Part shown: positions 14,652 through 16,480 of the stretch, piece after piece
How the letters are laid out: every line of letters begins with the position of its first letter
Position numbering within the stretch: the stretch's first letter is position 1
Virus record (IMG/VR): IMGVR_UViG_3300031555_001469
Strand: one strand, 5' to 3'
Source of the DNA: a virus
Taxonomy: Duplodnaviria; Caudoviricetes
DNA: 64,000 nucleotides
The notes under the pieces: model-generated
The model's input: only the letters and a program-made list of their open reading frames with translations
What the model was told of the DNA's origin: nothing
Database searches by the model: none
Made by a program: the position numbers and the translations under genes

Positions 14652-15209
14652 TTATTCCTCCTCTACTATAACCGAAGCAAACATTCCGGTTCTAAATGAA
14701 TCTGATACAGGAAACTGTGATACGAAATCAAATATCTTCTTAACAGCATTATCTAAATCCTGTTCAGTTTTTAATTTGTTATTACAATGAACACTTACAC
14801 GATATGACCAGATATCATTGATTGGATCAATTGGCCAGTGATCATCAAAAAGTTCTAACTCTTTATCAAGAGGAAGAGCTTTTATAATATCTAATTCCTC
14901 AGGAGTTACATATACACCAATATATGTACCAGAAGAACCTGTACTAATAGGTGTACTTTCATAGTGCCCACTACAGTGTGCAAAAGTTTCATACCCTTTC
15001 TCATTTAAATATCTGATTACAGGTATCATCTTATCATCTACTTCATATGTAGAATTCGTTCTACAATACGGACAGTCGATATTCATAACCAAATTTTTAT
15101 ATTTGGTGTTTCTAAATATCTCAATTTTGTTCAATGCTTCTGCGACTTCCGTTAAATCCATCTCGAAGTCTTTAAAACAATTCATACAATAATAACTCTG
15201 TTTAATCAT
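14652..15209 (-). CDS. Zn-ribbon protein with a TYW3/Taw3-like motif (start reassigned to MIKQS)
   Basis: CMNC...CPYC; DDKMIPVIRYLNEKGYETFAHCSGH; the longer ORF start lies in a terminator hairpin. Confidence 0.55.
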   Translation of the reverse strand: MIKQSYYCMNCFKDFEMDLTEVAEALNKIEIFRNTKYKNLVMNIDCPYCRTNSTYEVDDKMIPVIRYLNEKGYETFAHCSGHYESTPISTGSSGTYIGVYVTPEELDIIKALPLDKELELFDDHWPIDPINDIWSYRVSVHCNNKLKTEQDLDNAVKKIFDFVSQFPVSDSFRTGMFASVIVEEE

Positions 15210-15233
15210 TCCCTTTACCTCCAAATTAAAATT

Positions 15234-15264
15234 CATCCCCGAGAGGTTAGATCTCTCGGGGATG
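15234..15264 (-). terminator. strong hairpin, likely terminator downstream of the ncRNA
   Basis: CATCCCCGAGAG-GTTAGAT-CTCTCGGGGATG perfect 12-bp stem. Confidence 0.7.
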
Positions 15265-15320
15265 TTTGACATAAAAATCTCGTTTGTGTCTATTTTAGTT
15301 TATATTTTAGATTGGCTTAA

Positions 15321-15769
15321 TTGCCTGTCTATGATGCCTACAGGAAGTCTTGTATATACCACCAAAACCTTTTGTGTAGGATTTAAATAATTTTTAACCT
15401 TTTAGTTTTGAGTTTTGAATTTTAAGCTATCTAAGTTTTAATCTTTTAAGCTTTGAATTCTTAACTTTGAGCTCTTAGGTTATTTGTTAGTCATTTTTCG
15501 ATAATGTCTTCACCACTTGACCAATGAGGTTACACCTCATAGGGGATTCGAACCCCTGATTTTATCTTTGTCTCGACTATTACTTCCGTTGCAGGGAAGC
15601 GCTCTCTGAGCCAATATTCAACATTTTGGAATTTGAATATGTTTGTATGTTTTGGATTTCAGATTAACCGTCTGTTCCGTTTATACAATTTATGGCGAGG
15701 TCTATGTTATACCAAAGCCGACCTCAGTCTTTGGTATGGTATATTTAGACAATTCTCATAGCCAGGCAA
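15321..15769 (-). ncRNA. putative ~450-nt structured ncRNA with paired ends, a permuted tRNA-like domain and a heptamer repeat tract
   Basis: 15756-15769 and 15321-15334 are complementary (13/14); internal hairpins; T-arm GGGGTTCGAATCCCC; no ORF of 60 aa or more. Confidence 0.75.
15391..15477 (-). repeat. degenerate ~7-nt tandem repeat tract, consensus about T(T/C)AAA(A/G)(C/T)
   Basis: taagagc tcaaagt taagaat tcaaagc ttaaaag attaaaac ttagatagc ttaaaat tcaaaac tcaaaac taaaagg ttaaaaa. Confidence 0.75.
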
Positions 15770-15778
15770 ATAATTTTA

Positions 15779-16480
15779 TTAGTCCTCTAACTCGAACTCA
15801 ATTATTGTCTGAACGTTAGATGTCGTTAATACCGTGTCTACTTCATTAACAAATGCATTATGAGCATCGATCATAGAATCAATCTTTCCAACATGATTCA
15901 TAGGATCGAGAATTTCATAAGTATTATTGTCGTAGAATTCCTGCTTCTGCTTTTCAATGAACTCTTCATTTAACTGTAACTCACCATTCTTAGTTATTAC
16001 ATTTAAAGTTTCAAGCCACTTTGTTTCAACTTCAGCATTCTTTGTCATAATAGCATAAGAAGCAAAGGAAGCCTGCTTCTTAACTAAAGAAAGGAAATTA
16101 GCACGATTCTGTGCAAGTTCTTTTCTCTTAATAGCTTCTGCTACTGTATACTCAACATCAGCAACTGTAACTTTTGTAGTTGCATTGGACTGTGCAATTG
16201 CTGCAGAGTAAGCTTCAATATTCTTAATAAGGTGATCATATCTATCGAAGTTGGACTGAAGAGATTTCTCTAAATCAGCAACATCGATTCCACCTAATTC
16301 CTTACCATCCTTAGTCTTGATTGTTAAGAACGGAATCTTCATAATCGTATCCTTTTTATTAAAAGGATTAGAGCCAGCATGTAAAATATCATTAAGCTCT
16401 GCCATCATATCCTTAAGCTGCTTCTTCATCAACTTAAGATCAATCATTGCCTGATAAACTGTAATTTTCTTTGTGCTCAT
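15779..16480 (-). CDS. coiled-coil protein resembling the DIP1984/DUF6847 family
   Basis: ITVYQAMIDLK, SNATT, YTVAEAIKRKE and VDTVLTTSNVQTII patterns; family recalled, not searched. Confidence 0.6.
   Translation of the reverse strand: MSTKKITVYQAMIDLKLMKKQLKDMMAELNDILHAGSNPFNKKDTIMKIPFLTIKTKDGKELGGIDVADLEKSLQSNFDRYDHLIKNIEAYSAAIAQSNATTKVTVADVEYTVAEAIKRKELAQNRANFLSLVKKQASFASYAIMTKNAEVETKWLETLNVITKNGELQLNEEFIEKQKQEFYDNNTYEILDPMNHVGKIDSMIDAHNAFVNEVDTVLTTSNVQTIIEFELED

Follow-up and report, generated by a model that had tools for sequence, protein, structure and literature searches.

A circularly permuted, closed-acceptor tRNA-like domain within a large non-coding phage RNA

What kind of element is the tRNA-like segment that lies in a non-coding gap of a large phage genome, and what might it do there? 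The DNA analysed is a 64,000-nt stretch (hereafter the window) of the Caudoviricetes record IMGVR_UViG_3300031555_001469 from IMG/VR. A gap of 506 nt free of open reading frames (ORFs) separates the gene of a 233-amino-acid (aa) protein (15779-16480) from that of a 206-aa protein (14652-15272), and it holds, at 15500-15566 on the minus strand, a segment that an earlier note, made from the letters alone, had described as a circularly permuted transfer RNA (tRNA) mimic with a closed acceptor stem. Comparative analysis shows this segment to be a genuine, selected tRNA-shaped domain inside a phage RNA of about 450 nt, because related phages keep the shape with different letters. Positions are those of the window, and loci used for comparison carry L numbers.

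The element order and the coordinates proposed in the earlier note were reproduced base for base. The module and the helix around it are composed as follows.

15500-15566, minus strand: whole permuted tRNA-like four-way junction (sequence, parse and covariance-model match)
15562-15566, minus strand: GAUAA, equivalent of the 3' strand of the anticodon stem, pairing 5/5 with UUAUC at 15500-15504
15558-15561, minus strand: variable-loop equivalent AAUC, in which C15558 is position 48, the Levitt partner of G15
15541-15557, minus strand: T arm AGGGG-UUCGAAU-CCCCU, 5/5 pairs
15524-15540, minus strand: closed acceptor hairpin AUGAGGU-GUA-ACCUCAU, 7/7 pairs, triloop GUA, no CCA
Between 15531 and 15530, minus strand: predicted RNase P site, in the acceptor loop
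15505-15523, minus strand: U8 and G9 (15523-15522), D arm (15521-15506) and A26 (15505), from sequence and parse
15500-15504, minus strand: UUAUC, equivalent of the 5' strand of the anticodon stem, pairing with 15562-15566
15575-15579, minus strand: UAGUC, strand of an outer (extension) helix, pairing with GACUA at 15488-15492 (pair probability about 0.66)
15488-15492, minus strand: GACUA, partner of 15575-15579, from folding and comparison with L005

The D arm reads GTC-AAGTGGTGAA-GAC at 15521-15506 on the minus strand; written with an extra A.A it becomes GUC(A)-AGUGGUGA-(A)GAC, and the D stem consists of three pairs plus A.A at 13:22. The canonical tRNA residues are all there (U8, A14, G15, G18G19, A21, G53:C61, the T-loop UUCGAAU, and C48 facing G15). 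The outer helix is separated from the closing stem by an 8x7 internal loop, and the permuted cloverleaf folded together with it lies 1 kcal/mol above the minimum free energy (MFE).

Close homologues of the 233-aa protein were found on Logan contigs (54-74% identity), and six of these loci (L005-L010) were examined. The same RNA is present in all six; its 5' and 3' domains hardly vary, its centre does, and each locus has at least one permuted module. L005 and L006 have the window type of module, while L008 has two modules in series. The modules of L007, L008a, L009 and L010 run in the order T arm, closed acceptor, D arm and complete anticodon arm, with the anticodon loops CAGUUAA, AUGUUAA, AUGUAAA and CCGCUAA, respectively; it is thus at the variable-loop position that these modules are connected to the host RNA on both sides. 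The same shape is thus built in with two kinds of wiring, one joined at the anticodon stem and the other at the variable loop with the anticodon arm complete. The earlier note's statement that the element has no anticodon holds for the module of the window but fails for these sister phages, and in the window itself an anticodon-like hairpin stands upstream of the module. A possible "variable-arm" helix between the flanks of the anticodon-arm modules (e.g., 9 bp in L009) was no better than in shuffled sequences.

A pattern scan and a covariance model revealed two further contexts of the closed-acceptor module among 80 IMG/VR loci. In L257 (identical in L263) and L279 the module has the position known from the window, after the 5' domain and ahead of the repeats of the host RNA. 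A closing stem is found at the same place (CAGAA/UUCUG in L257, GUAAAU/AUUUAC in L279, and GGUAA with a G.U pair in L005), and in L257 and L279 the permuted cloverleaf is the MFE structure. In L200, two near-identical units of T arm, closed acceptor and D arm occur outside the RNA body (L200:1177-1236 and L200:2677-2736), one upstream of the protein gene and the other about 70 nt after the RNA. A motif resembling GAGCYTGARCTTACTTC precedes each of them and is present twice more at about 1405-1495.

Eleven modules were parsed by script, coming from the window clade (including L005-L010) and two other lineages (L257, L279, L200). MAFFT and model-guided alignments placed the acceptor 5' strand of the window, L005 and L006 one column out of register, owing to their shorter D loop, and pair counting was therefore limited to the nine modules outside the window subclade. 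In these nine, 96.9% of the cells pair, compared with 67.5% in shuffles. Both sides change in 10 of the 15 pairs, a level reached by none of 500 shuffles, and slid registers gave 43-61%. Across all eleven modules, the T stems pair 5/5 without exception and three of their five pairs change on both sides. The acceptor stem is always 7 bp long, with 7/7 pairs in nine modules and 6/7 in two and with three to five pair types at each position; its loop ranges from 3 to 11 nt and never encodes CCA. Acceptor strands match their own partner at 6.82 of 7 positions, against 2.83 of 7 for partners taken from other modules. The 15:48 pair is G:C in eight modules, A:U in three and mismatched in none, and the D stem covaries as well (GUC/GAC, UCC/GGA, GCC/GGC, GCG/CGC and GCUC/GAGC). 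The residues involved in tRNA tertiary contacts (U8, A14, R15:Y48, G18G19, G53:C61 and T-loop UUCRA) are kept in 11/11 modules.

Compensatory changes are also visible between close homologues. From L009 to L010, acceptor pair 4 turns from G:C to C:G; from the window to L005, T-stem pair 1 turns from A:U to G:C and the outer helix from AGUC/GACU to AGCC/GGCU. Eleven G.U pairs are compatible with the minus strand only. A covariance model of the nine modules outside the window subclade had a sole match in the window, at 15500-15557 on the minus strand (37.1 bits, E about 2e-8). In a covariance-model search of 82 loci, 12 modules were matched (with the L200 copies as separate entries) and scored 50-67 bits; the next matches, at 33 bits or less, were junctions of tandem tRNA genes. 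A loose pattern scan found one site in the window and 8 matches in 300 simulated 64-kb windows. The earlier note had named as damaging to its reading the case that homologous RNAs do not conserve the module; the homologues do conserve it, with covariation, and so support a permuted mimic with a closed acceptor and the topology of bacterial YrlA RNAs.

Upstream of the module lie two hairpins that matter for the way in which this locus is seen by tRNA-finding programs.

15583-15599, minus strand: anticodon-like hairpin CUUCC-CUGCAAC-GGAAG, part of the Rfam tRNA match
15601-15611, minus strand: degenerate D-like hairpin GCUC-AGA-GAGC, with the D-loop GG missing (GCCU/AGGC in L006)

The anticodon-like hairpin is located 17 nt upstream of the TAGTC strand of the outer helix. 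It recurs in the relatives as CUUCC-CUGUUAA-GGAAG (L005) and CCUGA-CUGUUAA-UCAGG (L006), with a covarying stem. The loop of the upstream D-like hairpin has no GG in the window or in the relatives, and the elbow partner of the T loop must therefore be the downstream D arm. The Rfam tRNA model gave a partial match at 15539-15615 (minus strand) with 34.7 bits, above the gathering score, covering model positions 6-65 with a 21-nt insertion, and ARAGORN called an odd 100-nt tRNA-Cys(GCA) at 15533-15632 (minus strand). Both native calls are composites, in which the upstream D-like and anticodon-like hairpins are fused to the T arm of the module. The earlier note had expected native tRNA finders to fail, and this was the case for L005-L010, where ARAGORN was silent, but not for the window, with its Rfam partial match and composite tRNA-Cys. 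Automatic annotation will consequently report a false tRNA gene here, mis-calling the locus as a 100-nt tRNA-Cys. A canonical tRNA gene (RF00005) was also considered and rejected: the native-order cloverleaf with an open acceptor is not present, and the strand with which the acceptor 3' strand forms its 7/7 pairs lies downstream of it and not upstream.

Native-order degenerate tRNA matches overlap the T arm in the window (34.7 bits), L257 (35.8 bits) and L005 (29.5 bits), which would suit a relic, i.e., captured tandem tRNA copies that are decaying without function and in which the acceptor appears closed since the 3' strand of one copy complements the 5' strand of the next. The serial modules of L008, the position of the cassette among tRNA genes and the dimeric-tRNA origin proposed for YrlA by Wang et al. 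(bioRxiv 10.1101/312249) point the same way. However, the decay would have to be selective, as the upstream acceptor strand and D loop are degenerate while the T arm, acceptor, D arm, elbow and 15:48 pair are intact in 11/11 modules. Moreover, compensatory changes occur among close homologues, and the same module placement is found in two separate lineages. The relic reading is already disfavoured, and we regard it as quite improbable.

For the relatives, the earlier note's expectation that a re-permuted sequence would be recognized was borne out: ARAGORN then calls tRNA-Asn(gtt), tRNA-Tyr(gta) and tRNA-Ser(gct) for the anticodon-arm modules of L007-L010. In a chimera control, all L007 chimeras failed, whereas those of L008a, L009 and L010 often passed, because their G-rich and C/U-rich acceptor strands cross-pair. 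These calls, together with the order of 3' half, short linker and 5' half, are what a true permuted tRNA gene of the Cyanidioschyzon type would display, its RNA being cut and re-ligated into a decoding tRNA. Yet an anticodon loop is missing from the module of the window, L007 and L010 have another base in place of U33, and neither RtcB nor an Rnl2-type ligase was found in the phage. Bulge-helix-bulge splicing is not known in bacteria (bioRxiv 10.1101/312249), and the flanks of the module are conserved domains of a larger RNA. Such a gene is extremely unlikely here.

The anticodon-like loops bear on another explanation, in which the RNA is a decoy or sponge whose tRNA-shaped body and anticodon-like hairpins bind an anti-phage tRNA nuclease of the host or a tRNA-modifying enzyme and thereby protect tRNAs of host or phage. 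Seven-nucleotide anticodon-like loops with A37 accompany every module, either inside it or just upstream, and most of the hairpin anticodons are of the queuosine-family type GUN (GUU four times and GUA), the others being GCU and GCA. In addition, the cassette resides in phage tRNA clusters. Phage T5 escapes tRNA-cleaving defences by means of variant tRNAs. On the other hand, the anticodon differs among close relatives (GCA in the window versus GUU in L005 and L006), two loops have A or C at position 33, a sign that conservation of the loop is not tight, the hairpin of the window stands outside tRNA geometry relative to the elbow, and no nuclease is known for the host of this phage. We consider a decoy unlikely.

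To our knowledge, closed-acceptor circularly permuted tRNA mimics have been described before in one RNA family only, YrlA, which is tied to Ro60. The YrlA tRNA-like domain (RF02553, PDB 6CU1; Chen et al. 2014, PMC4201824; Wang et al. 2018, bioRxiv 10.1101/312249) has the same order of elements as the module described here, namely a T stem-loop, an acceptor-like stem closed by a loop, a D stem-loop and an anticodon-stem equivalent made by the flanks. Like the module, it is without CCA and without an anticodon loop and keeps the tRNA tertiary residues. The two differ in other respects. The host RNA has about 450 nt and a heptad array, while a Y RNA has 80-220 nt and a Ro-binding stem; the acceptor is always 7 bp here; and the sister modules have a full anticodon arm and are joined at the variable-loop position. 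Membership of the YrlA family was rejected: RF02553 has no match at E up to 10 in 15150-15850 (threshold 69 bits), and the best score of this model in the whole phage record, 11.4 bits, falls on the real tRNA-Met. A Ro-binding stem was not identified, no systematic search having been made. The earlier note had seen no Ro60/TROVE gene in the window, and this extends to the whole 229.8-kb, 93%-complete record, in which RtcB was not found either. Thus, a YrlA-like fold now appears in phages without Ro60, embedded in a far longer RNA whose companions are a protein and tRNA clusters, and the permuted tRNA shape is a reusable RNA module rather than a peculiarity of Y RNAs.

Previous studies showed that the tRNA-like domain of YrlA is mostly uncleaved, that its acceptor stems vary in length, and that only the 7-bp Mycobacterium smegmatis YrlA is cut by RNase P and given CCA (PMC4201824; bioRxiv 10.1101/312249). 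Two functional readings follow this division. In the first, the closed L-shape would stay intact, as in Salmonella YrlA, and would serve as a tether or elbow that recruits a tRNA-binding factor or packs on the RNA; candidate partners are a modification enzyme, a synthetase, EF-Tu, the RNase P holoenzyme as a binder, or a ribosomal site. The topology shared with the mostly uncleaved YrlA domain argues for this docking function, and so do the elbow residues and the Levitt pair, which are the most conserved features, and the very short GUA or GUG loops of four modules, which resemble stable hairpin caps more than processing spacers. Nevertheless, there is no obvious reason why docking should require exactly 7 bp in the acceptor, a length that is constant here although YrlA stems vary; no partner is identified, and most members of the RNA family are without the module. 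Uncleaved docking is a real possibility, to which we give roughly one chance in three.

In the second, the domain would be recognized by host tRNA enzymes and its acceptor loop opened at 15531/15530, which we propose tentatively, with somewhat less than even confidence. The domain would fold into the tRNA L-shape, with the D-loop GG against the T-loop UUC and the Levitt pair G15:C48, and would be read as such by tRNA-handling enzymes of the host. RNase P may then cut 5' of A15530, and RNase Z or exonucleases may trim back to G15533, after which CCA might be added. These steps would turn a single transcript into two pieces of RNA that stay joined, across the nick, through pairing in the acceptor stem and the outer closing stem, and the particle would carry a tRNA-like 3' end, with the A-rich array probably binding the neighbouring protein. 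The RNase P cut appears to be the likeliest event because the acceptor is exactly 7 bp, an unpaired discriminator-like base follows and CCA is not encoded. Reading by host enzymes is favoured because the 7-bp YrlA is cut by RNase P and at least nine loci of the family abut tRNA genes.

Several observations weigh against recognition and opening by host enzymes, or against the tRNA-like fold on which they would depend. Folded alone, the module of the window has z = -1.25, no more stable than shuffles, and its MFE structure omits the D stem and the closing stem. Some of the between-lineage covariation could reflect descent from different tRNAs rather than compensation. A loop of 3 nt (GUA) would leave RNase P and RNase Z very little leader and trailer between them, U is not favoured at position -1, and the acceptor of L010 can be extended to 9 bp. 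A CCA-adding enzyme, RtcB and an Rnl2-type ligase were not found in the phage, so everything would depend on the host. Finally, in about 25 of the 80 family loci an internal module is missing and no tRNA occurs within 1.6 kb either. The module is therefore an accessory rather than something that every member of the RNA family requires.

A bolder extension of opening by host enzymes is that the opened, CCA-tailed module is a chargeable two-piece tRNA, tethering the RNA of about 450 nt and a DIP1984-like protein and available to a synthetase, EF-Tu or the ribosome. The RNA-protein load would hang from the anticodon-stem position, or from the variable-arm position in the sister phages. If true, this would be a phage device conceptually parallel to transfer-messenger RNA (tmRNA), built the other way round, but we hold it to be very doubtful. 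The precursor of two-piece tmRNA is processed into two base-paired pieces. Its gene order (T arm, acceptor 3' strand, intervening segment, acceptor 5' strand, D-like region) resembles that of the module, which differs in that neither CCA nor a tag reading frame is encoded; the repeats downstream recur every 7 nt. Identity with tmRNA was rejected, as ARAGORN finds none and no open frame of 40 aa or more exists on the minus strand downstream of the module.

The RNA that hosts the module occupies 15321-15769 on the minus strand and is paired at its ends, with the module in its variable centre. The minus strand of the gap folds as RNA far better than shuffles (z = -6.7), and the following parts were recognized outside the module.

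15756-15769, minus strand: 5' strand of the closing stem of the host RNA, pairing with 15321-15334, invariant in L005-L007
15391-15477, minus strand: A-rich array of about 12 units of 7-8 nt (YUYAAAR), directly 3' of the module
15335-15384, minus strand: conserved 3' domain (AAAUCC...CUGUAGGC), nearly invariant in L005-L008
15321-15334, minus strand: 3' strand of the closing stem, pairing with 15756-15769

Equivalent long-range closing stems covary across 80 other loci, and array and closing stem are also found in the phages Bacillus CM1, phiCD211, D-1873 (Clostridium) and Pseudomonas Y1-MI. The family consensus of the 3' domain is AAAAUCCUUGA...CAAGGCUG. With a gene upstream, a closing stem (13-19 bp in the family), a 7-nt array and an AAAUCC...GGC 3' domain, the RNA of the window fits an uncatalogued heptad-repeat family associated with DIP1984-like genes. 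The 233-aa protein belongs to a large family (1221 clusters at 50% identity; 680 phage records), and every opened locus showed the gene followed by a non-coding stretch with the closing stem, the A-rich 7-nt array and the conserved 3' motif. The module thus offers a handle on the function of an RNA-protein cassette present in hundreds of phages, since a connection with tRNA enzymes, and with RNase P in particular, lends itself to direct testing.

The cassette is usually flanked by tRNA genes, and at least 9 of 80 loci have a tRNA gene on the same strand whose start lies 3-10 nt past the 3' closing strand. The loci are L203, L211, L253, L259, L260, L262, L265, L270 and L277. By analogy with MALAT1/mascRNA, RNase P cleavage of the abutting tRNA would make the 3' end of the RNA, and this close spacing suggests that RNase P already shapes members of the family. 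The likeness to MALAT1/mascRNA lies in a tRNA-shaped element on a long non-coding RNA that is used by RNase P (concept: bioRxiv 10.1101/312249); the element of the window differs in being internal and closed, not 3'-terminal with a free acceptor end.

Other large RNAs of phages were compared as well. GOLLD (RF01998) and ROOL (RF03087) are likewise large structured RNAs of phages and prophages at tRNA islands, and the linker region of GOLLD in some cases contains covalently attached tRNAs (Kretsch et al., bioRxiv 10.1101/2024.12.08.627333). However, their sequences and domains are different, the family described here follows a DIP1984-like gene, and its embedded element is permuted with a closed acceptor instead of being an ordinary tRNA. 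Identity with either was rejected, since neither RF01998 nor RF03087 matches. Staphylococcus phage K lnc001, called GOLLD/ROOL-like in PMC9241854, was rejected as a family member because it has no heptad array and its neighbour protein is unrelated. The orphan candidate small RNA RAGATH-27 (RF03100) corresponds to the 5' domain of the same RNA family in L257, where it matches L257:2251-2332 with 76.7 bits; it has no match to the window at E up to 10. It differs in comprising 86 nt of the 5' domain only, excluding the module, the repeats and the 3' domain, and judging by this match the catalogued 86-nt RAGATH-27 is a fragment of an RNA of 300-450 nt.

Searches for further relatives had the following results. 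The RNA of the window had no blastn match among cultured phages, and those of L257 and L279 matched only the uncultured Dulem virus 39 in the same kind of search. An exact-pattern scan of IMG/VR with T arm plus D loop had no match, and IMG/VR relatives were not found by protein-based locus searches (a single protein, and an alignment of close homologues). A 17-mer of the invariant 3' domain had 68 matches in IMG/VR and 120 in metagenome contigs, all due to chance; in this 17-mer search, the extended 3'-domain motif occurred only in the Logan-derived loci L005-L008.

The virus record has 229,764 bp at 93% completeness and a low GC content, and the genes around the module locus lie on the minus strand. 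The window encodes a PhuZ-like tubulin, pieces of a split multisubunit RNA polymerase and a sigma factor, and the virus is therefore a jumbo phage of the AR9/PBS1 kind. Two neighbouring features frame the RNA.

15779-16480, minus strand: gene of the 233-aa helical protein (phrog_1491, DIP1984-like), preceding the RNA family in every opened locus
15234-15264, minus strand: terminator-like hairpin of 12 bp, about 57 nt after the RNA

The host RNA starts 9 nt past the 233-aa gene on the same strand. The protein was modelled as a helical bundle with a predicted local distance difference test (pLDDT) score of 93, and the top fold match was 3KDQ, the DIP1984 structure. A sigma-70-like promoter (TTGAGT, 17 nt, TAAAAT) was noticed by consensus match at 15773-15801 on the minus strand; it overlaps the final codons and stop of the 233-aa gene plus the first nucleotides beyond, and ends 4 nt before the 5' closing strand of the RNA. 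From this consensus match, the host RNA might have its own transcription start.

The sole canonical tRNA of the phage is a tRNA-Met(CAT) at G000:C1:68338-68411 (L280:1038-1113), outside the window and about 22 kb from the RNA; a tRNA cluster is absent in this phage, unlike in most phages with the cassette. Between the RNA and the sigma-factor gene, the window has no ORF of 277-296 aa, the size of a PemK-toxin-domain gene found in relatives two to four genes downstream of the RNA (L006:4337-5176, L007:4868-5701 and L008:3710-4567); the ORFs of the window were not scanned for PemK itself. Orphan Rfam motifs were also observed a few hundred nucleotides downstream of the cassette, namely drum RNA (RF02958) at L001:3850-3957 in Clostridium phage D-1873 and RAGATH-18 (RF03064) at L279:1912-1985.

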